64,000 nt of DNA from Puniceicoccaceae bacterium (GCA_040830765.1 JBFOMH010000013.1:64001-128000), one strand, 5' to 3'. Positions 31,848-61,179 are shown, counted from the stretch's first letter. Notes: generated from the letters alone by a model not told the origin. Made by a program: numbers and translations.

Positions 31848-33029
31848 TTACGGTGAGATTGGTTGCCAGGAAGCGGTGACGTAATCGTAGTACCATCCGC
31901 TCATGGCATTAATAAAGACCCACTTGTATCCTTTGGGGATGTAGGCAAAAAAGCCATCGGGAGTACCGCCCTGCTCGTAGACCCACATCCATTCGCCGTC
32001 CTTCATGCTGTAACTGAAGACCCACGGCCAGTGTTCGTCGGCAATCCAGCCCATGCGGCCCATGTAGCCGTGCCCGGCCGGACCCCGGGCAACCGAATGC
32101 CCCCACCATGAACCGATGGGAATGATGTCCATGGCTTTTTGTGCCAATACAGCATGAGTGGCAGTGGTTGGGTGGAAGCCATCCCAGGAAAGATATTCAT
32201 TGGGATTGGGAACAAGGGTTCCTGCGGTTAGATCCAAGGCCGGCATCCAGACCTCCACGAGGCCATAAGATCCCGGATCGGCTAACAATCCGCCATAAAG
32301 GGTCTCAATGTCGAGTCGCAGAATGGTCACCTTGTCGTAGGCGTTCTCAATCCGGTTCAAAGCCTGCTCAAGCCCGGCATTAAATCCATTGACCAGAAGC
32401 TCCAGCTGGGCTTGGGCCTCCGGTGGCTGGGACAATCCGTACGGGGTCAGGTGCAATGGCGGCATGTTCATGACAAGGAACATCCGCGCGCCCAGTTCAT
32501 GCAGGCCAACGATGCCACGGGCGATATTGGTCACGGAATTCTGAATATCCTCCCGCGTTACCGGCCGCTGCTCGGTTTCGATAATGCGGAGGAAATCATT
32601 GGGGCCGAACCAGACCGTGAAAAGTTGCCATGGCATCGGTCCCGGAATCTCCTCATTGGCGACCGCATTTTGCCACATGCGGATCTGGGCCCAGAAATTG
32701 GGTGTGTCCTGATCACTCAGGCCGGCTCCGGATTCAGCACCGCCAAAGGCAAAGTTTGTTCCTCCTGCAAGTGAAGGGCTGACATCGAAACCGTAGGCAC
32801 CAGCCGCGATCTCAATCCAAACAAGGCCGTTGGAAGCGCGGTTGTTGTAATAGGGGAACGGGTAATTGGGTGGGAGTGTGGGATCATCCCGGCCTTCTGC
32901 CCAAATGGCTGAATTGCCATTGGCCGAGAGACTGTCACCAAAGACAACAATGCTCTTAATGCCGGGTTTTGCCTGTACCCCCGCAACAATAAAGCAGCAT
33001 ACCGCTGCAAGGAGACATCTGTTAAACAT
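31848..33029 (-). CDS. Secreted SGNH/GDSL lipase/acylhydrolase with Trp-rich C-terminal module
   Basis: FGDSLS, RASNG, NFAFGGA, GPNDF, WDGFHPT motifs; aromatic C-terminal ~85 aa. Confidence 0.9.
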   Translation of the reverse strand: MFNRCLLAAVCCFIVAGVQAKPGIKSIVVFGDSLSANGNSAIWAEGRDDPTLPPNYPFPYYNNRASNGLVWIEIAAGAYGFDVSPSLAGGTNFAFGGAESGAGLSDQDTPNFWAQIRMWQNAVANEEIPGPMPWQLFTVWFGPNDFLRIIETEQRPVTREDIQNSVTNIARGIVGLHELGARMFLVMNMPPLHLTPYGLSQPPEAQAQLELLVNGFNAGLEQALNRIENAYDKVTILRLDIETLYGGLLADPGSYGLVEVWMPALDLTAGTLVPNPNEYLSWDGFHPTTATHAVLAQKAMDIIPIGSWWGHSVARGPAGHGYMGRMGWIADEHWPWVFSYSMKDGEWMWVYEQGGTPDGFFAYIPKGYKWVFINAMSGWYYDYVTASWQPISP

Positions 33030-33125
33030 AGTAGTACCTTTCTCTGGGGGATAGTACCCACTTGCAAGTGCAAGTCAACACAATCCAGATGGCCAGACTG
33101 GAGTCCTGTTCCGGAGTCCCGGCCG

Positions 33126-33878
33126 CTAAAACTGCACCTTGATACGCGCTTTGACAACAGTTGGCCGTCCATTACACCGTGGTGGCGCGAAGCGAAACTG
33201 CTCAACAGTCTGGTGGGCAGCATCCCTCAAAAACGGGTCATCTTCCTGATCAGAGCGGACGACCCTGGGGATCCCATCCTGATCAATATAAAATTCCACC
33301 TCCTGTTCGCCGGAGACGCGGTTTCCTGCCTCATCAATGAAGACGACCGGCTTCCCCTCGCTGATTAGCTTCAATGGTTCATCCAAGGCATGGCCTGGGG
33401 CCACCCGGAGACCGTACAGGCCGCCACTCATCCGGTTGAGCTTTATTTCAAGGTAAGTGGCCGGATCGAGATTGATAATTCCGTAGTAGCCAACCTCCCC
33501 CACCGGAACATCGACAACAATGTCAATCAGGACTGCTTCCCCATCCATCATTGCTGGTTGGAACCGAGCGGATTGGAAGGCGCGGTCAAGGGGCCGAATC
33601 AAATCGTAGTGCGGTAAGTCCAAGGCTACCCAGTCGATAACGGATCCTGACTCATCAATTCGTAAAATAACCGTTGCGGTGGCATCCGCATCAACCAAGT
33701 GGACAATGGTGTAGGGGATATTAATATGGAGGGGCCACAACAGCACGGGATCGATGATCTCGGGACCATCTGCGTTCCCGGCTGATGTGGCTGACTGCCC
33801 GCCTGTTGAAAGTATAAGGAAAATGAGCCCGGCAATCAGCAACCGGGCCAGACAGCGAAGACTGTTGCCCCTCCTCAT
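33126..33878 (-). CDS. TonB C-terminal-domain-like protein (two domains)
   Basis: N-terminal TM; two 'I-D-x-x-G...F-x-P...G' TonB_C-like units. Confidence 0.6.
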   Translation of the reverse strand: MRRGNSLRCLARLLIAGLIFLILSTGGQSATSAGNADGPEIIDPVLLWPLHINIPYTIVHLVDADATATVILRIDESGSVIDWVALDLPHYDLIRPLDRAFQSARFQPAMMDGEAVLIDIVVDVPVGEVGYYGIINLDPATYLEIKLNRMSGGLYGLRVAPGHALDEPLKLISEGKPVVFIDEAGNRVSGEQEVEFYIDQDGIPRVVRSDQEDDPFLRDAAHQTVEQFRFAPPRCNGRPTVVKARIKVQF

Positions 33879-33903
33879 TGGAACACCAGTAACTTATTGC
33901 AAA

Positions 33904-35040
33904 TCAGGCCTGGTGGCAACTGGAATCGGTGGAACTCACCGCGGCGGTGAAGGCAGCATCGTACCTTGGCGACAGGCGGGCCCAGTCATACCGGCCAACT
34001 GCCCCAGCCTGCTGGCATGGTTCCCGCCAGGCACCGGATTCAATCAGCGCGGAGATGCTGTCAACTGCCTCCTCCAGATGCTCGTAGAAGTACCGTTTGT
34101 CATCCAGATGCTCGGGATAAGCCAACCTTCGCGGAAGGACTGGATGATTACCGGTATATATAGCCTCCACCACACTACCGCCAAAGAAGTCCTGGATGCT
34201 GGTCACCGGCAGGATATCTGACCGCCAAAGCCAGCGGGCATAGTCGGCAAAGGCCTCCACGGGTCCATCATGGACAATAGCCGGGCCCAGTACCTTCCTT
34301 GTTTCGGCAAGGCCGGAAGGCTCCCCGGACCCGCGTTCGCCGAGGAGGGCCACTTCGAAAGTGAGACCACGCTGATGCAACTGCAGGAGAATCTGCAGGA
34401 AGGCTTCCGGACATTTGTCGAACTCCCAACGGTGGTTCCACAGGATCAGGGGAACGGCTTTGGTTTCCGGTCGCGAAGGGCGGTATTCGTCAAGGGCCCG
34501 GAGATCCAGTCCGAGCGGCAACACATCCGACTTCGCCACTATCTCGTCAACCGTTTCAAGGTTCACGGAGTCGGGATAACGTTTCAGGATTTCCGGCAGG
34601 GACGAGAGGAAACTGTCCTTGTGGTAGTGGGAATTAAAATACACCTTTTGTACGGCCAATGCACTGGTGTAATTGATCCAGCCGTAATGCAGGTCGCGGG
34701 ACTCCGTGACATCCGTATCCCGCGGGGAAACAGGATAGGAAATCTGGTTCTCGTGGAAATAGGCGACTACGGGAGTCCTGATTCCTGCCTGGCGTATCAA
34801 GGAAATAAATACAGCGACATCCATCATGTCACTGACGAGGAACAGGTCATACCGGGATCCCGAATGAATGACCTGCCGGGCCAGGGTCACCGCCGCCCCA
34901 TGCATCCTCCACTTCCAGTGACGAGCGGGCAGGGAAAGAATTTCGATATGGTGTTCAGAGTACTGTACCAGCCCGTCGGCCCAGCGTCGGTGGGATCCAC
35001 CGTACCAAGGCTCGAGCAACCCGATTTGCAACCCGCTCAT
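33904..35040 (-). CDS. DUF3524 GT-B glycosyltransferase (GTDC1/QTMAN-like)
   Basis: LEPWYGGSH, LPARHWKWRM, YFHENQISYP, FNSHYH, WNHRWEFDK, DFFGGSVVEA motifs. Confidence 0.85.
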   Translation of the reverse strand: MSGLQIGLLEPWYGGSHRRWADGLVQYSEHHIEILSLPARHWKWRMHGAAVTLARQVIHSGSRYDLFLVSDMMDVAVFISLIRQAGIRTPVVAYFHENQISYPVSPRDTDVTESRDLHYGWINYTSALAVQKVYFNSHYHKDSFLSSLPEILKRYPDSVNLETVDEIVAKSDVLPLGLDLRALDEYRPSRPETKAVPLILWNHRWEFDKCPEAFLQILLQLHQRGLTFEVALLGERGSGEPSGLAETRKVLGPAIVHDGPVEAFADYARWLWRSDILPVTSIQDFFGGSVVEAIYTGNHPVLPRRLAYPEHLDDKRYFYEHLEEAVDSISALIESGAWREPCQQAGAVGRYDWARLSPRYDAAFTAAVSSTDSSCHQA

Positions 35041-37211
35041 TTATCAAGGGCCCAGAAGAGGAAGGCATAAACATCCGCCTGTTCCTCCCAGATAGCACTC
35101 CGGGCAACGCCCCCATGCCCGGCCTCGAACTCCACCCGCAGAAAGAAGGGACCCCCCTCGTCATCGGCCTGCTGCAGGCGGGCCGCCATCTTGCCCGGCA
35201 TCCAGGGGTCAACCCGGGTATCGTTGTATCCGCAGGTTAGCAGGACCGGCGGATAACGCACCCCGTCCTGAACGCCAAAATAGCTGTCCATTGCGAGTAC
35301 GTATGGGAACTCCTCCGGATCGAGGGGGTTTCCATATTCAGGATAGTTCGCCGGGCCGTTGGCCCGCCGGTGATTCCGGACAGGGTTGTGGTTGCCCACC
35401 GAGGAAACAATGGCCCCGAACAAGCCGGGATCGGCTTGCATCGCCTTGCCAACAAGGACACCGCCCATGCTGCCTCCCTGCGCAGCAATGCGTCCGCGGG
35501 AAGTATACCCCTGCTCGATGAGAAATTCCGCGCAGGCATTCAAGTCGAGCCAGCTGTTGCGCTTGGTCTCCAAATGGCCGCCATCATGCCATGCCTTGCC
35601 CAGTTCGCCACCGCCGCGGACATGCGCCACCACAAAAACACCACCCCGCTCAATCCACGGAAGCCGTAACGGCCCGTAACCCGGGCGCAGGGAAGTACCA
35701 TAGGCCCCGTAACCCCAGATACGAGCTAGATTGGTTCCATCCAGCTGAACGGATTCATGGTGCACGACCGTCAGGGGTACCTTCACCCCATCGTGCGAGG
35801 GAACCATGTAGCGCTTCGTAACCATGCCTTCGGGGGCGTCAAACGGCCCCAGTGGACGCAAGTCACTCTGTTCCACTGTTCCGTCTTCCGGGTTGTAGCG
35901 GTAATAGGCGAAGGCGCGGGTCCACGAGGTCAGGGCAAGGTATGGATCCGGCATCCGGTAGTCGTTGCTGAGGATAGTAACCCGGCCCACCACTGGCAGG
36001 TCGACCATCTTGAAGACGGAACCGGGATCACCCAAATCTTTTGTCATGAGGAAATCGATACCTACTTCCATTCCCGTCACATAGAGCCTGCCTCCAAGCA
36101 CATTGATACCGGACAGAACCTTGTCGCTTTGCGGGAGAATCTCCACGATGCGCGACTTATCGAAACCCTCAATGGCAGCAGAGAGGACCTTACGCCTCGG
36201 GGCATCCTTGTGGGACAGCATGTAGAGCATGCCGTCGTGATAATCGACCGATTCAATGCCATCCTCCTTCGTGCAGATGTTCGTCCACACTGTCTCACTC
36301 GCCTTCGCGGGGTCAAAGTCCCTGGCCACGAAATAACTGTCTGCCCGTTCCACCCCGTGGGAAATTACCGCCATGGTGTAGGGACTGTCAGGAAGCGGAA
36401 ACAGATAAGCCGTATCCACCTCGCTCATCCCGGGAAGCGGCAGATTGTCGTACCAGACGACCAGCTCGTCCCGCCCAAGGTCGGTACCCAACTTGTGGAA
36501 CTTGGTATACTGGCGCTTATAGCGGTCGCCGGGATCCTGGTCAGGACTGTCCGGGCGCAGTTGGGTATAGTAGAATCCGCTCCCGTCCTGCAACCAGCCG
36601 GGATAGGACCGTACCCTCGGGATGGGCCCGTCAACCACTTCACCGGTTTCCACCTCAATGATATAAAGGTCCGGAATTTCCGCTCCTCCGGCCCCAATAG
36701 TCACCCCAACCAAATCGCCATCATAGGATGGCTGATAGCCCAATATCGAATGGATGGTATCCGTGGCGGCGAAATTGGCTGCGTCGGCCACCAAGCGACC
36801 CTCCCCGTCAATCCCATCACGGTAATACAACTTGCCGACCTCTTCCCCGACTTCCTGCTTAAGGTAGAAGAAGCGGTCAAAACGGCGATTGAAGGAGGAA
36901 ATTTTAACCGTCTTGGCTTCGTCAATCTCCTTGATACGCTCGTAGAGCTCATCTCGACCGGGCATCTTGCCAATCTGCTTGCGGGCAAAGGCATCCTGGT
37001 CCCGGAACCACTCCTCGTTGTCCGGGTCATTCTTGTCCTCCAGCCAGACAAAAGGATCCGGCAGGCGTACATTGCCATACTCGTGGACGACTTCCTTGAC
37101 CGGGGTTTTCGGGTAGCGGAGCTTCTTGGCTACTGAGGTCAGGGGAGCCAACAGCAGTCCGGCTGTTACAAGCATAAGGACGACACGACGGAATAAACTA
37201 ATACGATCCAT
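35037..37211 (-). CDS. Prolyl oligopeptidase (S9A), secreted
   Basis: Signal peptide; DPFVWLED, GYGAYG, RGGGELG; catalytic GGSMGG / DTRV / AGHG. Confidence 0.93.
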   Translation of the reverse strand: MDRISLFRRVVLMLVTAGLLLAPLTSVAKKLRYPKTPVKEVVHEYGNVRLPDPFVWLEDKNDPDNEEWFRDQDAFARKQIGKMPGRDELYERIKEIDEAKTVKISSFNRRFDRFFYLKQEVGEEVGKLYYRDGIDGEGRLVADAANFAATDTIHSILGYQPSYDGDLVGVTIGAGGAEIPDLYIIEVETGEVVDGPIPRVRSYPGWLQDGSGFYYTQLRPDSPDQDPGDRYKRQYTKFHKLGTDLGRDELVVWYDNLPLPGMSEVDTAYLFPLPDSPYTMAVISHGVERADSYFVARDFDPAKASETVWTNICTKEDGIESVDYHDGMLYMLSHKDAPRRKVLSAAIEGFDKSRIVEILPQSDKVLSGINVLGGRLYVTGMEVGIDFLMTKDLGDPGSVFKMVDLPVVGRVTILSNDYRMPDPYLALTSWTRAFAYYRYNPEDGTVEQSDLRPLGPFDAPEGMVTKRYMVPSHDGVKVPLTVVHHESVQLDGTNLARIWGYGAYGTSLRPGYGPLRLPWIERGGVFVVAHVRGGGELGKAWHDGGHLETKRNSWLDLNACAEFLIEQGYTSRGRIAAQGGSMGGVLVGKAMQADPGLFGAIVSSVGNHNPVRNHRRANGPANYPEYGNPLDPEEFPYVLAMDSYFGVQDGVRYPPVLLTCGYNDTRVDPWMPGKMAARLQQADDEGGPFFLRVEFEAGHGGVARSAIWEEQADVYAFLFWALDK

Positions 37212-37269
37212 GACGGAAAAGGAATGCCGGCAGGCCTGTTTTGCAAGTTCCCTCAGCCAATCAGTACTA

Positions 37270-38424
37270 TCACCAGAGGTTGGTATGGGTAAGGATCAAT
37301 TCCACAGGATCGTTCAGAACCGGCTCCTCCTGCCGGCTGCGGATGAGACCCACGCCCGGGGCCAGCCACATTTCCGTCTCAAGGTCCTCAGAGGGACCCC
37401 CGAACGGATCCGGGGAGTGGACAGAGGCACGGATGACCACGACATCACTGTAGGACCTTCCCTGAAGAATATAGAGGGGGATCTTGTCGATCAATTCGTA
37501 GCGGATTGCCGGATAAAAGGGTGTAGAGAAATTCTGTCTATCCTCCAGAAAATCGTTCGCCCAAACCTCATAGGTGCCTGACACCCAGCCACCGGAGGCC
37601 CATTGCTCATAAACCGTCCCGACTGGGAGCTGATACAGGTCAGCCCGCCATGGAAGGTTGACCAGCAACTCACCGATGACATTGGTATTGGCCGATGCAT
37701 TAACGAGAAAGCTGTTCCCGACGACGCTGAATGCCAGGGACAGGTTTATTGAACTATCATCGAGATAAACACCCAGGTCATCACGCACAAATTGGCTGCT
37801 TTCCGCCCCGGTCAGGACGCCGACAATTGGATAGTAGAAACCATCGACTAAAACTCGTCCAGTGGCATCCGCCTCCATCGTTGAGTTCTGCAGCAGGTCC
37901 CTTCCTGAGAAACGGACAGAATACTTACTGAAGCTCAGGAACAATTCGACATCATCAACCTGGCCACCAACGGGATTACCGCCATTGACACTATAGTCCC
38001 AGGTGAAGACCTGCGATCCTTCCGGTACCGGAAAGTAACTGGCACTCGACGCAACCGCCGCATCGCTGACCCATTCCTCCGGAGCCCGGTCGAAAAACCA
38101 GCGGGGATTAACGGATCCCCTCGCATAATAGATCCATCCACGATTCTGTTCATAGATGTTGGGGTAGCTTTCCTTGCTCGTCCAGAGCCACCCTAGGCCG
38201 GGGCTCCACAACCAGAGACTCGAAGGGTTTTCATCACCACTGTAGAGCCAGCCATGGTCAAAATGGTAAACCCATGGATAAAATTGGTCGTTGAAGTAAT
38301 CGAACCATTCCAGGTAACGGTTGCCACCCCCTAAATCAACGGCGCCTTCAAAGGGGCTCGCCGGCAGAAGGCTACCACCCCAGGAAAGGGCTGATAGCAT
38401 TAACAATATCCTGCACGCTTTCAT
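37270..38424 (-). CDS. Secreted hypothetical protein with N-terminal Trp-rich module
   Basis: Signal peptide from ATG 38424; aromatic ~95-aa module; C-terminal 'WLAPGVGLIR' motif. Confidence 0.75.
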   Translation of the reverse strand: MKACRILLMLSALSWGGSLLPASPFEGAVDLGGGNRYLEWFDYFNDQFYPWVYHFDHGWLYSGDENPSSLWLWSPGLGWLWTSKESYPNIYEQNRGWIYYARGSVNPRWFFDRAPEEWVSDAAVASSASYFPVPEGSQVFTWDYSVNGGNPVGGQVDDVELFLSFSKYSVRFSGRDLLQNSTMEADATGRVLVDGFYYPIVGVLTGAESSQFVRDDLGVYLDDSSINLSLAFSVVGNSFLVNASANTNVIGELLVNLPWRADLYQLPVGTVYEQWASGGWVSGTYEVWANDFLEDRQNFSTPFYPAIRYELIDKIPLYILQGRSYSDVVVIRASVHSPDPFGGPSEDLETEMWLAPGVGLIRSRQEEPVLNDPVELILTHTNLW

Positions 38425-38491
38425 GAAAATCTCCTCCTCACGGAATAATAATATACGCCGCCTCGAATTTCCCGGCAACTCGAAAAAGGTT

Positions 38492-38511: not shown

Positions 38512-38515
38512 CCCT

Positions 38516-42604: not shown

Positions 42605-45600
42605 TCAGACCCCGGATTCGTGGAGGTATTCTCCGGAGCTCAAGGAAAAGTACCAGCGGTTCGGCGTGGTCGTCGTCTCGAAGTAGTAGTACCACGTTCC
42701 TTGCCCACCCTCAAACCGGTAGACATAGGGCCAATAAGCCGGTGCGCTCCAGAACCACTCGCCAAGGGCATAGTCGAAGTAGAAGAAGGAATCCGGACTC
42801 GCCCCTTCCGGGATGTAGATGTTGTGCATGTTGAGGTGGAAGACGACCGGGAACTTGTCCTGGTTCATCCAGCCCAGCCACTTCGACTCGATCCAGCCGT
42901 CCTCGAAGACCGAGGCATCCGGCCAGAGTGACCCGCCGTAGGCATTGAGAAGGGCCCAGCCGGTATTGTTGTCCTCGTGGATTTCCGCGACGAGATTCTC
43001 CTCATCGATCACGGCATAGATACGTGCGTTTGGATTAATGATCCAAGGCACCGTCCAGTCCGTAAGAATCATGACAAAGGATTCCCGCGGAGCCATGCCG
43101 GGGATAGTCAGGACCGATTGCCCTTCCCCACCGACCATCGGGATAGGCGGGCGTCCGTCCTTGTTGTCGAGATAGAACCGGAGGCTGGCTGGTGACGATC
43201 CGCCCGGGTCGAGGGAGTAGTTATGGATACGGGCCATGACGTCGACCTTGTCACCGGCACGCGGCTTGGAAGGATTGACGAGGATGTTCCGCGTCCGCTG
43301 CACCTGATCCTGAGGGATGTTTGAACCCCGCTCGATGTCGTAGCGCCAGGGAAGCGTGAAGGCGAGGTCCGGCTGATGGGCATATTTCTGCTGCCACCAG
43401 CCCTCGTAGCCATCGCCGAGAACCGGGTCCACGGCATAGTCGAGGACAAGGGCCCCATTGGTTCCCCAGTAAAGGTATGGCGTGACCTCGTAAGTGGTGT
43501 CCCCAAGAATCCCGACATCGACGTTGCCGAAGTTGACCAGGACCGTGTGGTCCACGGAGACGGTTGTCTTGTGCGTACTGACCGTGGACCGGGAATAGTC
43601 CCCCTGGATGTAGCCACCCACGGTGACCCCCAGCGAGCCGGTGACAAACTTGGCAATCGGCAGTTCCACGGAAGCCTCCCGCTCGACCTCAACGCGCGCA
43701 CTGATGCTCATGTTGGTCGTCCGGGTCAGCTGGTTCTGCTGGTATTGTGACAGTTCCAGTGTCCAGGAAGAGGTTCCCTGGCCCTGCATTTCCCAGCTGA
43801 ATCCGGTGAAGGACGTCACCGGACTGGCGACCAGCGGGTTGTCGATCATCTCCACCGACGGGCGATAGGAGAGGATGTTGCCCGGTTCATGCGGCGTGAC
43901 ATACTCGGCCGCCCGCGGGCTCTTGGAGTTGAAGGTCACCAGCTTGGGGCGCTTCGGAACCACCGAGGCGATCGTCCCGAGAAACTCCCCGGCCCGGTAG
44001 ACCGGATATTCGAGGATATCGTAATCGGCCACCGAGGCGTAGATGAGATCATCCCCCCGGGCAACAAACTCCCGCGTTTCCCGGATCGTCGTGCCCGAGT
44101 TGCGGACCCTCGAGAAGCCTTGCCCGTATTTGCCGTCGAGGCTGGCCTTGACCCGTTGCTTGGCCTTGCCGATGGGAGTGCTGATACCGCCCTCCACTTC
44201 AACCGAGACGCCCGCCGAAATGGCCCAGTCCGCCCGGACCTCCGTCGAGACCTCCTGGATCAGTTCGTTCTGCAGGGTGTAGGAAGCATAGGTACCGCAG
44301 TCGCCGGAAAGGCAGCCGTTCACGTCGAAGACTTCTCCATTGAGAATATCGAAGTGCGTCGGGGGGGCATTGAGAATCATAACCGGATGGCCCAGCTCCG
44401 TCCGGCGGTAAATGGTGGGACGACCGAGACGGAGTGAATCAGCATCAATGTCCCCGGTAACCATGGCCACACAGGGGGGATCGTTGCTGCCGATTGAATA
44501 CATTTGAAAGTCACCGACGCTGACGATGTAGCTGCCGCCGGAGAGCTGTGCCGTGACGGAAACAACTTCCCCCTCCAGGTCAGCCTCGGTATCGGAGTTC
44601 AGGTCCGTGACAGAAACCCCGGAAGCAACCTGGATGTACTCGTTGTCACCATTCGTCGACGTAAAGCCAATCGAGCTCGGCTTGCCATCGATGTAAGAGC
44701 CATTGAGGTAGCGGGTCAGGGCACGGGCACCGCGTTTGCCCATCCAGCCCAGATCGTCGATGTTGTCGTAATTGTAGTCACCGGTATCGAGGGTCAGCGG
44801 ATACAGGTTGTTACCCAAGGTTGTTTCCATGATGAAAGGGAGGGATTGCGTGGCAACCAGGCCGTTCATCTCCGGATTCATGATGTAGTAACCGAGTTCA
44901 AAATAATTGGTCGCGCCCCCGGACCTGGATCCGATGGAACAGCCCATGGCAATCTCCTCGAGGCCGTCATTATTGAAGTCTCCTGCAGCCACTCCGAGAG
45001 CAAAGACCTGGTCGAAGGTCCGGCTGGTGGCATCCCAGTCCGGCTCCTCGATCTCGAAGCGGTAGGTGATAGATGTCTCGGCCTCCGGGTCAAAGTCATA
45101 GACCCGCGCAAAAACTTTCCGGTAGACTCCCGATGCCTTGGTCAAGTCCTGCCAGACATAGGCAAGGATGATTTCATCCCCATAATCTGTATCGAGGCTG
45201 CCGGCAGCGATGTCAAAACGGGCACTGTCACTCGCTGCCGAAACATCCAGGTCCGTATCGCTGACCATGCTGACGTCAGCAATGGAGCCAAGGACAACCA
45301 GGTCGCCTGACTTGCTGATTTCCGCAGCGATCAGTTGCACTTCACCCTCCCCGGCCCAGTAGCCAAGGATGAACTCAGAGGCCAGGTCCTTGTCCAGCTG
45401 GGCTGGAATTACCCGCATCAGGGAAACCGTCCGGGTGGACTTTTCCTCATAGAGCAGAGGAAATCCCAAGTCGCTCAGCATGTAGCGTTCTCCTGCGGTA
45501 AACTGACCTGTATTGGGATTGTAGCGGGGGCGCTGCAGGATCGGCTCCCGGTCCTCACCCTCAAAAAACACCAGCATGTCGTCGTGCATGTCCTTGTCCA

Positions 45601-45922
45601 GGTCCAGCATCGCCAGATCAACCACCGGGCTCTCGCGCTCAACGACCGAGCCAACGGGAATTTTCGCCCCGGGAAGGGATAAGCTGCCCAGCAGGGGATA
45701 ATCGTCCCCGTTGGGATCGTCATCAAGCAGCCGGAGCTCGATCATGCCGGAGGTCGCGTCGGCGACAGCGACGAGGATCTCGTTGGATGGGGCCAGGCGG
45801 TAGTTATCCGCAAACGGGTCCTCATCATTGAACTGTGCCAGGCACGCCGTTGTTCCTACCAGCAAGGGCGCGAACAGGCGTGACAAGCGTCGGGTCAGTG
45901 GGTTATTGCTTATATGTTCCAT
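42605..45922 (-). CDS. Large secreted protein: FG-GAP-like repeats, Ser/Thr-rich beta-hairpin region, CARDB-like Ig domain, Trp-rich C-terminal module
   Basis: DLDKDMHDD, GDFNNDGLEE, GDYNYDNIDD Ca-binding loops; 'IDEENLVAEIHEDNN' CARDB-like motif; aromatic C-terminus. Confidence 0.8.
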   Translation of the reverse strand: MEHISNNPLTRRLSRLFAPLLVGTTACLAQFNDEDPFADNYRLAPSNEILVAVADATSGMIELRLLDDDPNGDDYPLLGSLSLPGAKIPVGSVVERESPVVDLAMLDLDKDMHDDMLVFFEGEDREPILQRPRYNPNTGQFTAGERYMLSDLGFPLLYEEKSTRTVSLMRVIPAQLDKDLASEFILGYWAGEGEVQLIAAEISKSGDLVVLGSIADVSMVSDTDLDVSAASDSARFDIAAGSLDTDYGDEIILAYVWQDLTKASGVYRKVFARVYDFDPEAETSITYRFEIEEPDWDATSRTFDQVFALGVAAGDFNNDGLEEIAMGCSIGSRSGGATNYFELGYYIMNPEMNGLVATQSLPFIMETTLGNNLYPLTLDTGDYNYDNIDDLGWMGKRGARALTRYLNGSYIDGKPSSIGFTSTNGDNEYIQVASGVSVTDLNSDTEADLEGEVVSVTAQLSGGSYIVSVGDFQMYSIGSNDPPCVAMVTGDIDADSLRLGRPTIYRRTELGHPVMILNAPPTHFDILNGEVFDVNGCLSGDCGTYASYTLQNELIQEVSTEVRADWAISAGVSVEVEGGISTPIGKAKQRVKASLDGKYGQGFSRVRNSGTTIRETREFVARGDDLIYASVADYDILEYPVYRAGEFLGTIASVVPKRPKLVTFNSKSPRAAEYVTPHEPGNILSYRPSVEMIDNPLVASPVTSFTGFSWEMQGQGTSSWTLELSQYQQNQLTRTTNMSISARVEVEREASVELPIAKFVTGSLGVTVGGYIQGDYSRSTVSTHKTTVSVDHTVLVNFGNVDVGILGDTTYEVTPYLYWGTNGALVLDYAVDPVLGDGYEGWWQQKYAHQPDLAFTLPWRYDIERGSNIPQDQVQRTRNILVNPSKPRAGDKVDVMARIHNYSLDPGGSSPASLRFYLDNKDGRPPIPMVGGEGQSVLTIPGMAPRESFVMILTDWTVPWIINPNARIYAVIDEENLVAEIHEDNNTGWALLNAYGGSLWPDASVFEDGWIESKWLGWMNQDKFPVVFHLNMHNIYIPEGASPDSFFYFDYALGEWFWSAPAYWPYVYRFEGGQGTWYYYFETTTTPNRWYFSLSSGEYLHESGV

Positions 45923-50890: not shown

Positions 50891-52468
50891 TCACCGGCAG
50901 GTACTCCTGAAAAAGACCGGATTGCCGGATACCGTTTGAATGAATGGACTGAAGGGCTGAGGGATGACATCGGTCCATGTCTCCAAGTCGTCACTCCTTT
51001 GCAACCAACCTTCAAACTCGATGTGAACCTGGTTCGCCTCCCCCCGGGAGATGGCGTGACTGGCCTCTAGATTGGGCTGCATTCGCCGGATGATGCCATC
51101 CTGCTTGTTGATAAGATAAATCCGTCCGGGTGTGTTAACACTGAAACGCAGATCCGCACGACTGGTGGTTGAGAGGGAACGCGCGGTTCGCGCCGAATTG
51201 ATGACATCAAGCATGCGCATGGCAGAACCGCCTCCCTCACGGACAAGAACTTCAACAAAGCCATCCTGGCCCCCAACCAAAGGGTCGCTATCGAGGTCGA
51301 GAAGAAAAATAATCCCGGTTGGAAAGTCGGCCGTTAGGAGATTGCCATCCAACCCATCAATGCAGGTGCCCCGGGCCACTTCTCCAATCGTGATCGCCCG
51401 GTTGCTGATAGACGGTTGCGGATCCGTGACAAAATCGACATGTCCATACTCCGCAACGGGATCCGTCAGTCCGGTTGTTGTTCCACCTTCAAGCTCCTGG
51501 CTTCCTTCCCGCACATCCCAACCGTAGTTGGCCCCGTTGGATGCCAGGTTAATTTCCTCGAGCGCATCGTGCCCGATATCAGCAATAAACAAATAACCGG
51601 TGGCGACGTCCCAACCGAACCGCTGCGGATTTCGCAATCCATAGCAAAAAATCTCCGCCAGCGTTCCTGAATCGCCATCGGAGGCAAAAAGATTCTCCGG
51701 GACAATCCCGTATTCTCCGTTGGCACTGTTGCTCCCGAGGGGATTGATCCTGAGGATCGCCCCGTAGGGATTGGCGGGATTCTCGGCGTTCTCGAGCGGG
51801 TCAGCCTCCCCGCCCCCCTGTGCTCCGTCCCCTAGGGCAATGTAAAGATTTCCACGATCGGGATGCCCGGAGGATACACTGCAGTTGAACGCAATCAATC
51901 CTCCAACGTGTCCCCCGAGAGGCTGGTTGATACGCAGTACCTCACGATAGGGATTGGCCAGGTTAGCGGCAACGAAGGTCAGGTCCGCGGGACTATCCGT
52001 CCGCCACTCAAGGAGCAGGGTATGGAAACTGGTCCCCTCTCCAGAGGTAAAATCAGGATCAGGCTCCGTGGCGTTTGAACTGAAGAGGGTATAGAAACGG
52101 CCAAAGCCGGGTTTGCCGGATTTATGAAAGTCTGGATGGAAGGCAAAACTTTGCAAACCATGGAATCCGGCATTGAGGTCGAGCTCGGGATAGTCCCTCA
52201 GGTCGAGATACTCGGTAACACTGCCGCTGTCCTCATCGACGTGAAACAGTGGCCCCCGCAGGTCATTAACAAAAAGGCGACCCATTGGATCCTCCGTCAT
52301 CACCGTACACCGCGGAACCACTCCCGGAGTCGAGTCGGGAACAACAGCGATCTCACTGACCTCCATGACCAATGAGGATAACGGCACCGGCAATGGATAG
52401 ACGTCCGTCGAGGCCCCTGTGTTGAATGCACCCAACAAGCCAGTCAGGAGGAACACGTATCGCTGCAT
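50891..52468 (-). CDS. PQQ-dependent glucose/sorbosone dehydrogenase-like beta-propeller with C-terminal FxR module
   Basis: AFHPDF, YIALGDG, YGLRNP, ADIG, NYGW motifs; C-terminal LQRSDDLETW...FFR. Confidence 0.82.
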   Translation of the reverse strand: MQRYVFLLTGLLGAFNTGASTDVYPLPVPLSSLVMEVSEIAVVPDSTPGVVPRCTVMTEDPMGRLFVNDLRGPLFHVDEDSGSVTEYLDLRDYPELDLNAGFHGLQSFAFHPDFHKSGKPGFGRFYTLFSSNATEPDPDFTSGEGTSFHTLLLEWRTDSPADLTFVAANLANPYREVLRINQPLGGHVGGLIAFNCSVSSGHPDRGNLYIALGDGAQGGGEADPLENAENPANPYGAILRINPLGSNSANGEYGIVPENLFASDGDSGTLAEIFCYGLRNPQRFGWDVATGYLFIADIGHDALEEINLASNGANYGWDVREGSQELEGGTTTGLTDPVAEYGHVDFVTDPQPSISNRAITIGEVARGTCIDGLDGNLLTADFPTGIIFLLDLDSDPLVGGQDGFVEVLVREGGGSAMRMLDVINSARTARSLSTTSRADLRFSVNTPGRIYLINKQDGIIRRMQPNLEASHAISRGEANQVHIEFEGWLQRSDDLETWTDVIPQPFSPFIQTVSGNPVFFRSTCR

Positions 52469-53132: not shown

Positions 53133-53147
53133 GGCTCTACCTGGCAG

Positions 53148-55570: not shown

Positions 55571-55617
55571 GGAGGCATTAAGTCCAGGTTGCCATAGTCT
55601 TTGGAAGGGCAATTCGA

Positions 55618-55646
55618 TTGACCTTGATATTCCAATTGGCTACAAT
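55618..55646 (+). promoter_or_regulatory. Sigma-70-like promoter, near-leaderless
   Basis: TTGACC-17 bp-TACAAT ending 9 bp before ATG 55656. Confidence 0.65.
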
Positions 55647-55655
55647 CCGAGCATC

Positions 55656-56522
55656 ATGAAATGGAGCATTATGGGGATATGCTCCCTTATGTTGGTGGGC
55701 TTGACGGGATGCGACGTCGATTCCGATTCGAGCACGTCGTCACAACCACGGCAACGCGCGCCAGTGGCGAAGTTCAAGCAGGTGCATCCGATCGAGGAAA
55801 CAGCCAACGGTGTGGAAGTACCGTTAAGCCAAAAAAGGGAAATAATTTCATTTATTGAAGCTGGTATTGCGCAAGCAAAGGCCAAAGGAACTGACGATCT
55901 GGCCCAGCGGGAACGGATCCTGCGGGATGCAGCAAGGCGATTCGGGATCGACCAGGAAACCGTGGAAACAATCCACAGCCAGATGTCCGCGGTTGAAACC
56001 GACCCGGGGAAGTCCGGGACTGGAGGTGTTTACGAGGAGTCGGTGGCCTCCGACATGCTATTGGCCGAGCAAGGGGACGCTGCTGCCCAGTATCGCCTGG
56101 GGATGCGCTACATGGTTGGCGAAGGTTTGCCCCAGGACTTTGCCATGGCGGCGCAGTGGCTCAACCTGGCCGCTGAACAGGGGCATGTGGAGGCAGCCTA
56201 CCGGCTTGGCCTGTGTTACAAGGATGGTCTTGGCGTCAGTCTGGATCCCTTGGTGGCCCTTCACTGGTGGCGCTACGCGGCCGAGCAATACCACGTAGAC
56301 GCGCAGGATGAATTGGCCAATGCTTACTTTGTCGGATTCGGGGCAAGGCGCGATGTGGTCACCGCCGGGATGTGGTCGATCATCGCCACTACCTTGGAAC
56401 CGGACAATCCCGCCTGCCGGATGACCCGTCAGGCCATTGCCAACGAGCTGACTTATCTCGAAGAGGAGCAGGCCAGGGAACGGGCCAGCATGTGGCTTTC
56501 ATCCGTGCCGCCGGGTGGTTAG
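55656..56522 (+). CDS. Sel1-repeat lipoprotein
   Basis: Lipobox LTGC; AEQGDAAAQYRLG...G, AAEQGHVEAAYRLG Sel1 repeats. Confidence 0.88.
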   Translation: MKWSIMGICSLMLVGLTGCDVDSDSSTSSQPRQRAPVAKFKQVHPIEETANGVEVPLSQKREIISFIEAGIAQAKAKGTDDLAQRERILRDAARRFGIDQETVETIHSQMSAVETDPGKSGTGGVYEESVASDMLLAEQGDAAAQYRLGMRYMVGEGLPQDFAMAAQWLNLAAEQGHVEAAYRLGLCYKDGLGVSLDPLVALHWWRYAAEQYHVDAQDELANAYFVGFGARRDVVTAGMWSIIATTLEPDNPACRMTRQAIANELTYLEEEQARERASMWLSSVPPGG

Positions 56523-56548
56523 CACTCCCGAACAGGAGGGGAAGGGCT

Positions 56549-57304
56549 TTAATCCGAAGGCAGTTCCTTGACCCGCATTCCGCGAAAGAGGATGGTCCCC
56601 TGCTTTCCGGAATGAGATTGGAGGGCGAAGAATCCTGAAGGGAACTCATCGAGTATCACCTTTCCGGCAGGAATGCCGTTGATCCAGGTCATCAGCAAAT
56701 CGCCCCTGGCATAAATCGTGACCCGGTTCCAATTATCATAATCCACGGCCTCGCGAACAGCCTTGTGCGCATCCAGCCAGAGGGGATACCAGTAGCCCCC
56801 ACAGCTCTGGCCGTAAATGCCGCCCGACCAGCCGCGGATGCGGGATTCCTCCTCCATCTCAAATTGAGGACCGTAGACCACCTCCTTGCCATCCTCCGTG
56901 CGGACGCCTGAACGAAACTGGATACCGGTATTGGCGTCGACAACATACTTCACTTCGCAGGTGAAGATAAAGTCGGTGTAATCGTCCTTCACAGTTGTCA
57001 GGTAAGTACTGGGGGAGCCGGGAACACAAATTGCCTGGATCCATTCCCCCTTGGCCTCAAACAAATGCTCGCCGCCGCGGACCACCCAACCGTCAAGGTT
57101 CCGGCCGTTGTACAATTCGACAAAGCCGGTTTCCAGATCAGCCGGTTCAGGCGCCGTGTTGAGGAGCATCTCCTCCGGATCCGGCGCATTCGCCTGTTTG
57201 CTGTACCTCGGATACCAGTCCTTCATCTGGTCCTCCGAAACCGTGTTTATCCCCCAACCGGTCAGCGCTCCCAGCAGGAACAAGGCAAGTGTCATGGTCT
57301 TCAT
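56549..57304 (-). CDS. DUF1080 (3-keto-disaccharide hydrolase-like) protein
   Basis: LYNGRNLDGW, NTGIQFRS, GGIYG, WN, FALQSH motifs. Confidence 0.88.
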   Translation of the reverse strand: MKTMTLALFLLGALTGWGINTVSEDQMKDWYPRYSKQANAPDPEEMLLNTAPEPADLETGFVELYNGRNLDGWVVRGGEHLFEAKGEWIQAICVPGSPSTYLTTVKDDYTDFIFTCEVKYVVDANTGIQFRSGVRTEDGKEVVYGPQFEMEEESRIRGWSGGIYGQSCGGYWYPLWLDAHKAVREAVDYDNWNRVTIYARGDLLMTWINGIPAGKVILDEFPSGFFALQSHSGKQGTILFRGMRVKELPSD

Positions 57305-57649
57305 GGAACCAACGATTACGACTTCCTCGGCAAATGGCAAGGGGTCAACCCTTGGAATTTGGCCTTCCGGTCGAACCCAGAAAGGAGAAGGACTCGTCCG
57401 CGATATCCAGTGATGCCTTGGGTGCGTTGTGCGGCTTGCCGCTACGGCAGGGCTAGACGAAGCATGGGCCTGTTGCTGGTGCTATGCGTCGGGGTTAATC
57501 CGTATGGATTAGACGCGGATCCATTAAGTTGATGTATTAGCACTGCTATTCTGCGTAATTAGGATTGCTAAACCGGGACTTCGTCGTTTAATCAGGCATT
57601 CCCCGGATCAAATATAATGGCCATCAACGACAAAGGGAGAAGAACAAGG

Positions 57650-58933
57650 ATGCAAAAAGCGAAAGTGACAATTTGTGGACTGGCATGGGGAATCCTGCTT
57701 GGGGCAACGCCTGTCAATGCCAACTACCTGCAAGGGCTGGGCACTCTTGCCAATGCGCCAGTCCGATTCACTGAAGCAACGGCTATTTCGGCAGATGGCT
57801 CTGTGGTTGTGGGGAAGACCGTTCAAGCTGATGGGTCGGAATTCGGGAGCGAAATTGCCTACTGGTGGAAGAACGGCGTGGGCATGCACAGCCTCGGTGA
57901 AATTCCCCAGGATCTAAAAACATTTAACGCCACCGCGGTTTCGGGAGATGGCACAATCGTTGCCGGAATCAGCGTTACCGGAGACGTCTTTTTAGCGCGG
58001 GTGGATGTGAACGGGATGGTAACCGACGGAAATTCCGTCACCGGGATGCGCTTTGCCGGGGCCATATCTGCAGATGGAAAAACAATTGTTGGCGCCAGCG
58101 GATCATTTCCCACGACAGCGGAAACGCGCATCATTCGCAACCTCGATGCGGCAAATCCACTAACCGCGGTACCGATTGTCGTAGAGGAATTAAATGACCA
58201 GAATGAATTGGTTAATGTGAATGTCCAAGGCGTTGCAACAGCCACCAACAGTGACGGCTCAGTTATTGTTGGATACCGGGGTAGCGAGGCCTTCCGTATT
58301 GAGAACAATACTGAGGTGACGATTGAGAAGGACTCCACAGACCAAGGCCTTGGCCCTGTCGGGGTCAGTGACGACGGATTGATTGTTGCCGGGACGCGGT
58401 CAACGTCGGAATTCCTGAGCATGCCTTTCGTGTGGAAGAAAGGTGAGCTCAATATACGGGAATTGTCCACCGGTGCATACACCCAGGTCGTTGCAAGGGG
58501 CCTTTCCGGTGATGGAAAAACCATTCTCGGCGAAGGTCGGGATGCCTTTTCCCGGAAACGCGCCCTGCTGTGGCTGGATGATGATGGGGACGGGAATTAC
58601 GCAGGTCCGGGAGAAGTCCTTTTCACTGGGACAAACACGTCAGGGAATTTCCAGATTCAAACAGTTGCCGGCCTGAGTGCCGATGGAAAATTCGCTGCCG
58701 GCTGGGGTACCGAATCCGGGGCCCGGGTTGCCTTCCGCATCGTTTTTGATGCCACAATATGGGCCCGTTACCTGGCCCATTCAGATGGAGTGAACGTAGA
58801 TACGGGCGATTTTCTTGGCTGGATAAACATCAGTTCCCCACCATGGGTTTATGTGTATAGCCTGGATAACTACGTCTATCTGCCGGAGGAATTTGTCCAG
58901 GACAGCGGCGCCTGGGTCTGGATCGGGCCCTGA
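57650..58933 (+). CDS. Secreted HAF-like repeat (beta-propeller) protein with Trp-rich C-terminal module
   Basis: Repeated A-x-S-x-D-G-x-x-[VI]-[VA]-G units; C-terminal VDTG-x-FLGWI...PPWVY; start 57617 or 57650. Confidence 0.82.
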   Translation: MQKAKVTICGLAWGILLGATPVNANYLQGLGTLANAPVRFTEATAISADGSVVVGKTVQADGSEFGSEIAYWWKNGVGMHSLGEIPQDLKTFNATAVSGDGTIVAGISVTGDVFLARVDVNGMVTDGNSVTGMRFAGAISADGKTIVGASGSFPTTAETRIIRNLDAANPLTAVPIVVEELNDQNELVNVNVQGVATATNSDGSVIVGYRGSEAFRIENNTEVTIEKDSTDQGLGPVGVSDDGLIVAGTRSTSEFLSMPFVWKKGELNIRELSTGAYTQVVARGLSGDGKTILGEGRDAFSRKRALLWLDDDGDGNYAGPGEVLFTGTNTSGNFQIQTVAGLSADGKFAAGWGTESGARVAFRIVFDATIWARYLAHSDGVNVDTGDFLGWINISSPPWVYVYSLDNYVYLPEEFVQDSGAWVWIGP

Positions 58934-58937
58934 GCCC

Positions 58938-59744
58938 CTACTCCACCAGGCGCATCGTCTGGAGGTTCTTTTCCCGGATCTCATCTGCCCGGGCAATGAG
59001 GTCGTCGAGGTCATGGGCCGAGGCGTGGATATAGCGCCCGGACAACTTGTCCGCCTTGCCCGAGGCCAGGGCGAGGCAAAGCTCGGCTGACTTCTCGATG
59101 GGCGTCCATTCCGCCTTGGCGACGAACTCATCCGGTATTTCGCGGGTCATCTCGGTCTTGACCAGTCCGGGGCTGATGGTGAAGACGGATATTCCCTGCT
59201 CATGGAGGGCCTCGGCCAGGTTATCCCCCAGCCGGATAAGGGCCGCCTTGCTGCAACCATAGGCCGATTTCATTGGGAAGGGCCAAAAGGCCATATTGCT
59301 TCCGACCATGATGATGCGGCCGGTCTTTCGCTTGATCATCCCAGGTATGACCGCCTTGGCACAAAGGTAAGGTCCGCGGAGGTTGACTTCAAAGGTCTGC
59401 CACCAATCTGCCGATTCAACCTCCCAGGGCATCCCGTCAGGACCTGACGTGCCCGCGTTGTTAACCAGCAGGTCGACATGTCCATAGGTGGACTCTATGG
59501 TCGCGAAGGTGGCCTTGATGGCAGCTTCGTCACTGACGTCGAGGGCCATGCTGCTGCACCGGCCGCCGGTTGCTCGAATTAACTGGCAAGTTTCCTCCAA
59601 CTGGGCGACTGTCCGCGCAGTCACGACCACGCGTGCCCCGGCAGCCGCCAGCTGACGGGCCACCTCTCGCCCAATTCCCCGGCCGCCGCCGGTAACCACG
59701 GCCACCTGGCCACTCAACAAGTTGTTACCCATGTTCTCAGTCAT
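58938..59744 (-). CDS. Short-chain dehydrogenase/reductase
   Basis: TGGGRGIG, NNAG, YGCSK, PGLVKT motifs. Confidence 0.94.
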   Translation of the reverse strand: MTENMGNNLLSGQVAVVTGGGRGIGREVARQLAAAGARVVVTARTVAQLEETCQLIRATGGRCSSMALDVSDEAAIKATFATIESTYGHVDLLVNNAGTSGPDGMPWEVESADWWQTFEVNLRGPYLCAKAVIPGMIKRKTGRIIMVGSNMAFWPFPMKSAYGCSKAALIRLGDNLAEALHEQGISVFTISPGLVKTEMTREIPDEFVAKAEWTPIEKSAELCLALASGKADKLSGRYIHASAHDLDDLIARADEIREKNLQTMRLVE

Positions 59745-59817
59745 GGCTGCAGTTTACAGGTTCTGGCACAAGGTACCAGCACTTTGCATGACGAATTGCT
59801 GTGACAGGAGAGGTCTC

Positions 59818-61179
59818 TTATTGACCAAGCCACATCCAACTGCCGGATTCGGTCACGAATTCCTCCGGCAGATAGGCATAGCTGCCCAGGGCATAGATAT
59901 AAACCCACGGTGGACTGCTGGTATCGATCCAGCCCAGGAATCCACCCGTATCGACACTAACACCATCCTGGGCAATATCCCAGATGCCGGCCCACTGATT
60001 GGAACCTTTCAAGGTTATCCCGCTGAAAACCTGTACCGGGGTGGTGACTTCATCCGGGGCACTAACGCCCAATTGGTCAAAGAAATTGGAGCCACAGGCC
60101 CAGACGGTCCCGTCATTCTTGAGGATGAGAGTGTAATAGGGACCCGCTTCCATCGCTGCGACATCGCTGAGTAACTGGAATGGGGTGGCCTTGTCATCGT
60201 TTGTGCCATCGCCTAATGCGCCCCAGATATTGCTGCCAACAGCCCACAAGGCGCCGTTACTTTTCAGGAAAAGGCTGTGCCCGAATCCCGCATCAATAGC
60301 GATAATGTCTGTCATCCCCGGCACGGGCTGGAGAGCACCGGAACTCGAAAACTCCCCATTGCCCAGCTGGCCGGTATTGTTGCGGCCGACTGCGCTGACC
60401 GTTCCATCATTCATGAGGAACAAACTGTGGTAACCGCCTGCGGAAATCGCTTTGACTCCTGTCTGGGTAATCGTCGCAATGGACCGGTCAGTGTTGGTTC
60501 CATCACCCAATTGGCCAAACGTATTGAAGCCTGCGGCCCAGGCATTGCCATCCTTGTCCAGGAAGAGCGCGTGTGCCTGCCCCACTGAAACCGTCTCGAT
60601 ATTACTGATCCCCTGAACCTGGACCGGGCTGGACTTGTCCTCCGTCGTCCCGTCTCCCAGCTGGCCGGTGCTGTTGCCTCCTGTGGCCCAGACAGTCCCG
60701 TCCTCCATGATAAAATAGCTGCTGGCATCGTAGGCGGCAATGGCCTTGACCCCGGTCAGTCCGGACACTGGAACGGGCGTGATGCGAAATTCCAGCGTCC
60801 CGTCGCCGAGTTGGCCACTAAAGTTGTCACCGGTCCCAACAACTGTCTTGTCATCCTTCAGGAAGAGGCTGTAGGCATTTCCGGAAGCAACCATGGTGAT
60901 TCCACTGAGGTGGTCCAATTTGGTATACACGGAGGCTGGTGTCTGGGACCCGTTGCCAAACTCATAATTGGTGTTGGAACCGGTTCCCCAGACCGACCCG
61001 TCATCCTTGAGAATAAGGCTGGTAAAGTATCCAGTAGAAAAATACACCCCGTTGGGGACTTTCCCAATGGCCGCTTCCGCAAGCGGGCCACTGGCAAGAA
61101 AAGGAAGCAGCAGGCAGGTAAACGTAAACGCTCGTTTCAAGCGGGTCGTGGAGAACATTATATGAACCTTGGTTGGCAA
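59818..61179 (-). CDS. Secreted RCC1/BLIP-II repeat protein with Trp-rich C-terminal module
   Basis: Seven DG-x-VW-x-x-G-x-N-x-x-GQLG-type repeats; C-terminal VDTGGFLGWI...PPWVY. Confidence 0.9.
   Translation of the reverse strand: MPTKVHIMFSTTRLKRAFTFTCLLLPFLASGPLAEAAIGKVPNGVYFSTGYFTSLILKDDGSVWGTGSNTNYEFGNGSQTPASVYTKLDHLSGITMVASGNAYSLFLKDDKTVVGTGDNFSGQLGDGTLEFRITPVPVSGLTGVKAIAAYDASSYFIMEDGTVWATGGNSTGQLGDGTTEDKSSPVQVQGISNIETVSVGQAHALFLDKDGNAWAAGFNTFGQLGDGTNTDRSIATITQTGVKAISAGGYHSLFLMNDGTVSAVGRNNTGQLGNGEFSSSGALQPVPGMTDIIAIDAGFGHSLFLKSNGALWAVGSNIWGALGDGTNDDKATPFQLLSDVAAMEAGPYYTLILKNDGTVWACGSNFFDQLGVSAPDEVTTPVQVFSGITLKGSNQWAGIWDIAQDGVSVDTGGFLGWIDTSSPPWVYIYALGSYAYLPEEFVTESGSWMWLGQ

Follow-up and report, generated by a model that had tools for sequence, protein, structure and literature searches.

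A family of tryptophan-rich, all-beta modules on probably exported proteins of a Puniceicoccaceae bacterium and its possible role as a surface anchor

The stretch of DNA analysed here (the window; 64,000 nucleotides, Puniceicoccaceae bacterium, GCA_040830765.1 JBFOMH010000013.1:64001-128000, i.e., positions 64001-128000 of contig C13 of the draft genome G000) encodes five proteins that share a Trp/Tyr-rich module. This module represents a genuine and large family of domains that has no name and whose predicted fold has no match, and it was found in 91 firm carriers in the host genome (3.99 Mb, 40 contigs, 56% G+C, 96.9% complete). Tentatively, and with a little less than even confidence, we propose that the module is a non-covalent anchor on a polysaccharide of the bacterium's own envelope, similar in its working to S-layer homology (SLH) and choline-binding modules and a member of neither family. 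The relatives of the host are polysaccharide degraders, and the question on which the module bears is how their enzymes stay at the cell. An unmatched fold, a glycan-binding anchor in an outer-membrane bacterium and self-pairing enzyme tails would, each on its own, be new.

Two related forms of the module

The initial annotation had described one aromatic motif in five proteins, placed right behind the signal peptide of the protein starting at 37270 and at the C-terminal end of the other four. Both the segments and their placement were recovered, with the corresponding 13-mers at 32016-32054 (-), 38266-38304 (-), 42839-42877 (-), 58814-58852 (+) and 59899-59937 (-). The motif pattern as originally written fitted only two of the five copies (those of the HAF- and RCC1-repeat proteins), and the supposed single motif resolved into two related forms of an all-beta, Trp/Tyr-rich family. 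The short form (ca. 60 residues) is carried by the HAF- and RCC1-repeat proteins, and the long form (ca. 105 residues) by the 37270 and 1105-residue proteins; the GDSL esterase bears a further long-form copy that is weak and shortened. The carriers and their modules are listed below; leave-out E-values were obtained with the window copies excluded from the profiles before scoring.

31848-33029, minus strand: GDSL esterase of 393 residues with a predicted signal peptide, carrier (PF00657, E 3e-20, residues 27-298)
31854-32120, minus strand: C-terminal long-form module of the GDSL esterase, shortened and divergent (iterative profile; leave-out E 0.011)
37270-38424, minus strand: 384-residue protein with a predicted signal peptide, an N-terminal long module and then ca. 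260 residues without a known family (ORF call, family scans)
38056-38367, minus strand: long-form module just behind the signal peptide, modelled as 11 beta-strands (leave-out E 1.6e-23; AlphaFold2 pLDDT 93.7)
42605-45922, minus strand: 1105-residue protein with weak FG-GAP and CARDB matches, carrier (ORF call, family scan)
42611-42943, minus strand: long-form module at the C-terminus of the 1105-residue protein (leave-out E 2e-21)
57617-58933, plus strand: HAF-repeat protein of 438 residues, carrier (TIGR02913, E 8e-12)
58748-58930, plus strand: short-form module of the HAF protein, flush with its C-terminal end, predicted homodimer (leave-out E 7e-21; pLDDT 95.2; complex score 0.75)
59818-61179, minus strand: RCC1-repeat protein of 453 residues from a TTG codon, its likely start being a Met seven codons later, carrier (PF25390, E 2e-68)
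59821-60006, minus strand: short-form module of the RCC1 protein, reaching its very C-terminal end (leave-out E 2e-17; 59% identity to the HAF copy)

HAF and RCC1 repeats are both of the beta-propeller type, and two of the five passengers had no family above the cut-off in the Pfam scan.

Profiles were grown iteratively from the window seeds over the open reading frames (ORFs) of the genome (n = 40,584). The short profile converged on 62 domains in 55 ORFs, the long profile added 36 further ORFs, and 8 more were borderline; when the full set of 40,584 ORFs was reversed or locally shuffled, none reached E < 0.05. The expectation that a hidden Markov model would link the five segments was borne out for four of them (leave-out E ≤ 2e-17), the GDSL tail joining weakly (0.011 and 0.028). 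Direct phmmer comparison among the five connected the HAF and RCC1 copies (independent E-value 1e-20), gave 0.54 between the 37270 and 1105-residue proteins, and joined the GDSL tail to none. In a profile-to-profile comparison by hhalign (probability 96.4, E 1.4e-9, 50 columns), the short form aligned with the long form's first half. The internal repeat that had been noticed in the longer versions was also detected (half 1 against half 2, probability 89.8, E 1.8e-6), the off-diagonal match in the hhalign self-alignment appearing only once the halves were split, and the repeat unit was ca. 40-45 residues long.

Trp made up ca. 9% of the module versus 1.7% of the background. Of 95 aligned copies (61 short and 34 long), 94 were net negative, an acidity about equal to that of the passengers (-7.9 vs. 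-7.0 per 100 residues), and a membrane helix was absent (peak 19-residue hydropathy 1.10 in the long and 1.26 in the short form). A CotH-type paralog (G000:C21:3233-6904, minus strand) ends in a short Trp-rich tail scored by neither profile, perhaps a third form.

Predicted fold and searches for known families

The AlphaFold2 models of both forms were all-beta (long form, 11 strands; predicted local distance difference test (pLDDT) scores of 93.7 for the long and 95.2 for the short form), and DSSP assigned strands and no helix of four or more residues to either. The view that the module belongs to no named family held in Pfam, NCBIfam, PHROG and solved structures. Pfam and NCBIfam gave nothing above cut-off for the module, either on whole carriers or on the 95 aligned copies; PHROGs matched 0 of 34 copies, phage tblastn gave no match, and the ESM Atlas returned only unnamed Verrucomicrobiota clusters. 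Foldseek against the PDB yielded best E-values of 0.68 (long) and 3.9 (short), a viral structure library 0.51, and VIA-align over 48,161 chains found none at Z ≥ 5. The best VIA-align matches were a lipid-binding insect protein for the long form (Z 4.1, root-mean-square deviation 3.1 over 68 residues) and PipX for the short form (Z 2.9, 3.0 over 45 residues). Judged from these models the fold is possibly new, although blank searches fall short of proof. No description of the module was found in the literature searched, which lay mostly outside subscription journals and did not extend to supplements.

Several weak matches were considered. DUF7183 touched 7 of the 61 short copies (best E 0.017), stayed below its own cut-off in the genome and was rejected. 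Designed Kelch propellers, obtained as PDB sequence matches of the long form, were likewise rejected, their score being the sum of six pieces of 2-3 bits each. The best PDB sequence match of the short profile was weak (chain 7pl5, putative endo-beta-N-acetylglucosaminidase, E 0.034); we take this chain to be the choline-binding module of pneumococcal LytB.

Carriers, cargo and exchange of tails

Among the 91 firm carriers, the module was C-terminal (≤ 45 residues from the end) in 83, right behind the signal peptide in 6 and internal in 2. Signal peptides, called by a hydropathy-plus-basic-residue heuristic and not by SignalP, were detected in 79 of the 91 carriers versus 652 of 1847 background ORFs, in agreement with the earlier view of the module as one shared by secreted proteins; several carriers failing the test were fragments or lay at contig ends. 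It was found N- or C-terminally, inside proteins, in tandem, at both ends of one protein and as the entire mature protein, which was consistent with a binding domain rather than a cleaved signal, as the initial annotation had argued. That annotation had also named three outcomes that would speak against its idea, and none was obtained: the profiles linked the segments (the GDSL copy weakly), no known domain was matched, and the module was not common in cytoplasmic proteins.

Cargo families were scanned in 94 ORFs, with the five window carriers scanned separately. The enzymes comprised GH10, GH16, GH88 and GH95 members, pectate lyases, chondroitinase B, heparinase, a sulfatase, an S8 peptidase and nucleases, and the other passengers included BspA repeats, RCC1, cadherin, fasciclin, CotH, cyclophilins, a redoxin-like protein and two multiheme cytochromes (8 and 9 CxxCH motifs). 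As far as can be predicted from family matches, this cargo is typical of surface enzymes; several carriers had a carbohydrate-binding module (CBM) of their own (CBM6, CBM9 or CBM96). A link to TonB-dependent receptors was weak at best: 4 of the 91 carriers lay within 2 kb of one of the 11 receptors detected, compared with 13 of 642 signal-peptide background genes.

Multiheme c-type cytochromes bearing the module together with weak MtrC/MtrF-like matches were observed at L010:1-1647, L019:4-2172 and L060:11-2152, and one such carrier was the sole match in a genome from another order. The cytochrome carriers are possibly surface electron-transfer proteins, to judge by their motifs.

Two other tail families were found in the genome: 21 proteins with PEP-CTERM (presumably TIGR02595), accompanied by three exosortases, and at least 21 ORFs with a third tail, consisting of a Ser-x-Asp-Leu-x-x-Trp segment followed by a Phe-x-Arg strand at the protein end. 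None of the 99 carriers (91 firm and 8 borderline) bore PEP-CTERM or the third tail, and no ORF in the genome bore two of the three families. Closely similar proteins differed in their tails. The short-module proteins C34:17558, C34:18490 and C34:11796 were 60-65% identical to the neighbouring PEP-CTERM protein C34:16525, and the module protein C12:62474 was 57% identical to its PEP-CTERM neighbour C12:63596. Similarly, C27:43873 (module) and C1:31719 (third tail) shared 50% identity, and the third-tail protein at 50891-52468 of the window shared 36% with the carrier C24:10255. Since paralogs exchange these tails, the module appears to occupy the slot of a surface anchor. In an unconnected observation, a PilQ-type secretin operon had an exosortase gene two genes downstream of it (L063:8620-12927, G000:C9).

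Range across genomes

The proposed restriction of the module to a lineage was supported by profile searches of genomes across the order and the phylum. The long profile matched 65 of 200 other genomes of the host's order, including all 13 of its own family; in other families, the fractions were 13/13, 5/5, 5/5, 3/3, 3/3, 6/7, 6/8, 4/13, 4/10, 1/13 and 1/2, and the long form was found in no genome of several families of the order, including three with 13 genomes each. In a phylum-wide sample, it matched 9 of 300 genomes (five of the host's own family, two more in the order and two outside it). The short profile matched 13 of 13 genomes of the host's own family and, beyond these, gave a strong match in one genome and marginal matches in four; the short form is thus nearly family-specific.

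In a library of clusters at 50% identity, 5,565 proteins matched at E ≤ 0.001 and 2,859 at 1e-10, and the source names of module homologs were Verrucomicrobiota, Puniceicoccaceae bacterium and Oceanipulchritudo sp., which makes an Opitutales verrucomicrobium the most probable host. Among the best 150 library matches, the module was C-terminal in 120, N-terminal in 13, internal in 4 and at both ends or alone in 13, and none of these 150 bore PEP-CTERM or the third tail. For example, P0005 and P0010 carried the module at both ends, P0007 consisted of a signal peptide and two modules, and P0144 of a signal peptide and one. In two other genomes (L067 in G353 and L068 in G334), a single long module stood behind repeats, presumably DUF4214, in proteins of ca. 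2000 residues; in a third (L074, G416:C22), the module lay inside a 3594-residue frame, ahead of what by eye resembled the start of an RHS/YD-type protein.

Association with GT-C enzymes and glycan loci

A polytopic membrane protein of the host (C1:61513-63435; L142:1489-3408) ends in a degenerate long module (E 2.3e-5). It belongs to a GT-C-like family with 6-10 hydropathy peaks and a DD motif after helix 1, in which one of nine proteins matched GtrII (PF14264, E 1.8e-4, below cut-off). All of the hydropathy peaks lie ahead of residue 460, whereas the module starts near residue 540, from which a topology with the tail beyond the last membrane helix was deduced. Homologs of this protein were found in 9 of 30 family genomes; of eight homologous ORFs that were fetched, five matched the long profile, two aligned by eye and one had no tail. 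The tails aligned with the long form over 80 columns (probability 97.5, E 5.5e-12), and a profile of eight GT-C-like proteins recovered the module from 19 of the 21 module-rich genomes and from none of the 20 that are module-negative. One of the homologs L143-L149 adjoins a GT2 gene, and one genome has two in tandem.

GT136 ORF12, EmbC and AftD are GT-C enzymes with an acceptor-binding CBM at the same place (PMC11127046). By analogy, a glycan of the cell's own envelope is favoured as the ligand of the module, chiefly because GT-C enzymes carry an acceptor-binding module there. In a genome of another order (G080), seven carriers of a shortened long form lay among GT2/GT4, ABC-2, methyltransferase and O-antigen-ligase-TPR genes (L057-L059 on G080:C45 and C20). 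A related aromatic segment may also open one further protein at these loci (L057:2683-4911).

Predicted self-pairing of the short form

Two short modules were predicted to bind each other, with a score of 0.75 in three runs against 0.00 for the best of three controls, 100% contact agreement and pLDDT ≥ 92. In an approximate calibration for which our own alignment was supplied, 20 of 30 solved homodimers attained this mark, as did 1 of 23 single chains. Fold searches returned no similar complex, so that recall of a solved structure by the predictor is unlikely. In the predicted interface, the last strand (residues 53-61) is paired with itself around the invariant Trp56, with additional contributions from residues 19-24, 36 and 38-41; the invariant Gly24 is also among the interface residues. 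In the long form, the counterpart strand 50-55 directly precedes strand 59-64, by which this edge may be covered intramolecularly. Thus, the short form is predicted to homodimerise.

The arrangement of short copies in the host genome is compatible with this model. Of 55 short carriers, 40 have a single copy flush with the protein end, and all of the other 15 have a second full or half copy; the half-copies retain the segment bearing most of the predicted interface. It does not amount to a strict rule that every short module not placed at the protein end is accompanied by another copy, since among 116 ORFs in relatives there were 4 exceptions. These 116 ORFs came from 60 loci chosen among the strongest matches outside the host's genus and from 49 library proteins, 10 library proteins apparently from the host genome being excluded.

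A proposed non-covalent anchor and its alternatives

If the module anchors proteins to an envelope polysaccharide, the carriers would cross the inner membrane by Sec, as their signal peptides suggest, fold in the periplasm and then cross the outer membrane, probably by a type II system. This route is suggested because two carriers are multiheme cytochromes and because a gsp-type locus (secretin, ATPase, GspK and a pseudopilin) is present on contig C15; two more secretins are encoded elsewhere in the genome. For relatives, a proteomics paper does no more than suggest type II export, and the words "C-terminal" and "anchor" were not found in it (PMC13274419). The module would dock, without cleavage, on a glycan that is put together on the periplasmic side and presented on the outside, such as an O-antigen or capsule. 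Its working unit would probably be two repeats, provided by one long chain, by tandem short copies or, as predicted, by single short modules paired via their last strand. As a result, ca. 90 probably exported enzymes, adhesins and cytochromes would be held at the cell surface, and the module, with 60-105 residues predicted to fold alone, would conveniently mark the surface proteome across the whole group. A bolder version is doubtful: a sortase-free surface display of diderm bacteria, built on a possibly new fold, in which exported enzymes clip onto an envelope glycan and the 55 short carriers pair via the shared strand into mix-and-match two-enzyme surface complexes without a scaffoldin.

Several results weigh against the anchor as set out here. 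An acidic module is odd for binding an anionic polymer, and mutual exclusion of the tails fits three export labels equally as well as three anchors. In the host genome, 0 of the 91 carriers lay within 2 kb and 1 within 5 kb of the 15 glycosyltransferase-like genes. The GtrII assignment of the module-tailed membrane proteins is below the Pfam cut-off. Among the 21 module-rich genomes, the enzyme part of these proteins was present in one (broken and without a tail); among the 20 module-negative ones it was present in five, where four of the five ORFs were checked and had no module and the fifth frame was too short for one. With scoring limited to 31 candidates per genome, the enzyme may be missed in six module-rich genomes. 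Since the enzyme part does not travel with the module, the GT-C enzyme is not its machinery; the module was joined to it in one family, and the fusion is local. As for self-pairing, the 116 ORFs in relatives comprised 85 with a single flush copy, 26 with a second copy, 1 nearly flush and 4 with a single copy near the N-terminus. In addition, among 194 sequences, a shallow set for covariation, 0 of 15 interface pairs ranked in the top 60 of 1596, and interface columns were not significantly more conserved (p 0.14).

The module might instead be a folded export signal for the type II system or another translocon, similar to the C-terminal domain (CTD) of type IX secretion (T9SS), with surface retention a separate matter. 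We consider this rather improbable. It would account for the C-terminal position of 83 of the 91 copies, for cargo resembling that of T9SS and PEP-CTERM, for the absence of the other two tails from module proteins and for the presence of the gsp locus. However, copies also occur N-terminally, internally, in tandem, at both ends and alone, and one sits on a polytopic inner-membrane protein. Since a GT-C tail at the inner membrane gains nothing from an outer-membrane export signal, glycan binding is favoured over this alternative. Furthermore, neither of the two candidates for which profiles were run, the secretins and the GT-C protein, tracked the module: secretins were present in 39 of 40 panel genomes, with or without it. 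SprA_N, the T9SS component searched for, was not found, though no control genome gave a match either and other components were not searched. The sole panel genome without a secretin match (G312; 2.6 Mb, one contig) is module-negative and belongs to the same genus as the module-rich G383.

An unlikely possibility is that the module is a protein-protein handle, the short forms homo- or heterodimerising and the long forms docking on a surface protein, so that enzyme assemblies would form without glycan binding. The predicted homodimer (0.75 vs. 0.00), its interface with the invariant Trp56 and Gly24, and the half-copies that keep most of this interface would be in line with such a role, and module-only proteins could act as adaptors. 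Covariation lent no support, however; no lipoprotein or membrane-anchored scaffold was seen among carriers besides the GT-C protein, and pairing alone leaves the swap with a membrane anchor unexplained.

There is, in our assessment, little chance that the module binds peptidoglycan or a periplasmic glycan and that the carriers work in the periplasm. The GT-C tail should face the periplasm, cyclophilins, a redoxin-like protein and cytochromes are among the cargo, and outer-membrane export would be unnecessary; yet BspA, cadherin, fasciclin, chondroitinase B and pectate lyase cargo fits the outside better, and the swap partner PEP-CTERM ends at the cell surface, according to a preprint (bioRxiv 10.1101/2023.06.07.544157). 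Attachment of released enzymes to algal glycans or surfaces, rather than to the cell, in the manner of a CBM would suit an aromatic-rich all-beta domain (Trp ca. 9% vs. 1.7%) on many carbohydrate-active enzymes, but is similarly improbable for a module that is common to enzymes for unrelated substrates and to non-glycan proteins (cytochromes, peptidyl-prolyl isomerases, nucleases), accompanies CBM6, CBM9 or CBM96 on several carriers and swaps with PEP-CTERM.

Comparison with known systems

The envelope anchor proposed here most readily invites comparison with choline-binding repeats (PF01473; LytA, LytB), which are likewise aromatic-rich beta-hairpin repeats on unrelated enzymes and anchor them non-covalently to a wall polymer. 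Their repeat is ca. 20 residues long versus ca. 40-45 in the module, the host of the module has an outer membrane, and at E ≤ 1 PF01473 matched none of the 61 short or the 34 long copies, with nothing above cut-off in the genome either. LicD was not found in this 97% complete genome, although the control was positive in 1 of 14 and other choline routes were not searched. No choline-binding protein was among the structures that the fold searches listed, although this leaves room for such a fold, and both module models consist of all-beta hairpins. LytA dimerises through its C-terminal hairpin (PMC4929436), and this dimer resembles the pairing predicted for the short form.

SLH domains (PF00395) are similar in being position-free anchors on many surface enzymes. 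SLH proteins are often encoded near polymer genes, with which the G080 carriers may be compared; the SLH fold is helical, unlike the all-beta module models, and no PF00395 match was found among the copies or in the genome. Dockerin, a duplicated calcium-binding loop-helix motif, gave no Pfam match among the copies, the models of which are all-beta.

The PEP-CTERM/exosortase system (PF09721) also places many paralogous tails on unrelated exported proteins, and its tails and the module are interchangeable on adjacent paralogs. Tripartite sorting signals comprise a signature motif, a transmembrane helix and a basic cluster at the C-terminus (bioRxiv 10.1101/2023.06.07.544157). The module lacks this motif-helix-basic design; it is a net acidic, folded beta domain, and 8 of 91 copies are N-terminal or internal. 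The T9SS CTD (TIGR04183) is a folded beta domain as well, similar in size (60-105 residues), in its presence on dozens of signal-peptide proteins and in cargo. TIGR04183 matched 0 of 95 copies and nothing above cut-off in the genome, the position of the module is not confined to the C-terminus, and its N-terminal copies argue against removal by a PorU-type sortase.

The CBMs of GT-C enzymes (GT136 ORF12, EmbC, AftD) are beta-rich domains after the last membrane helix, the same place that the module takes on the GtrII-like proteins. An immunoglobulin-like fold is given for the GT136 CBM (PMC11127046). No immunoglobulin-like fold was matched by the module, which, unlike these CBMs, is found mainly on soluble exported proteins.

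Other features of the window

All three tail families occur in the window, which contains the following proteins besides the five carriers.

25021-25602, minus strand: PEP-CTERM protein
28266-28907, minus strand: PEP-CTERM protein
50891-52468, minus strand: protein ending in the third tail family
62533-63999, minus strand: protein ending in the third tail family

The sole Rfam match in the window was a tRNA gene at 11868-11941 (minus strand).

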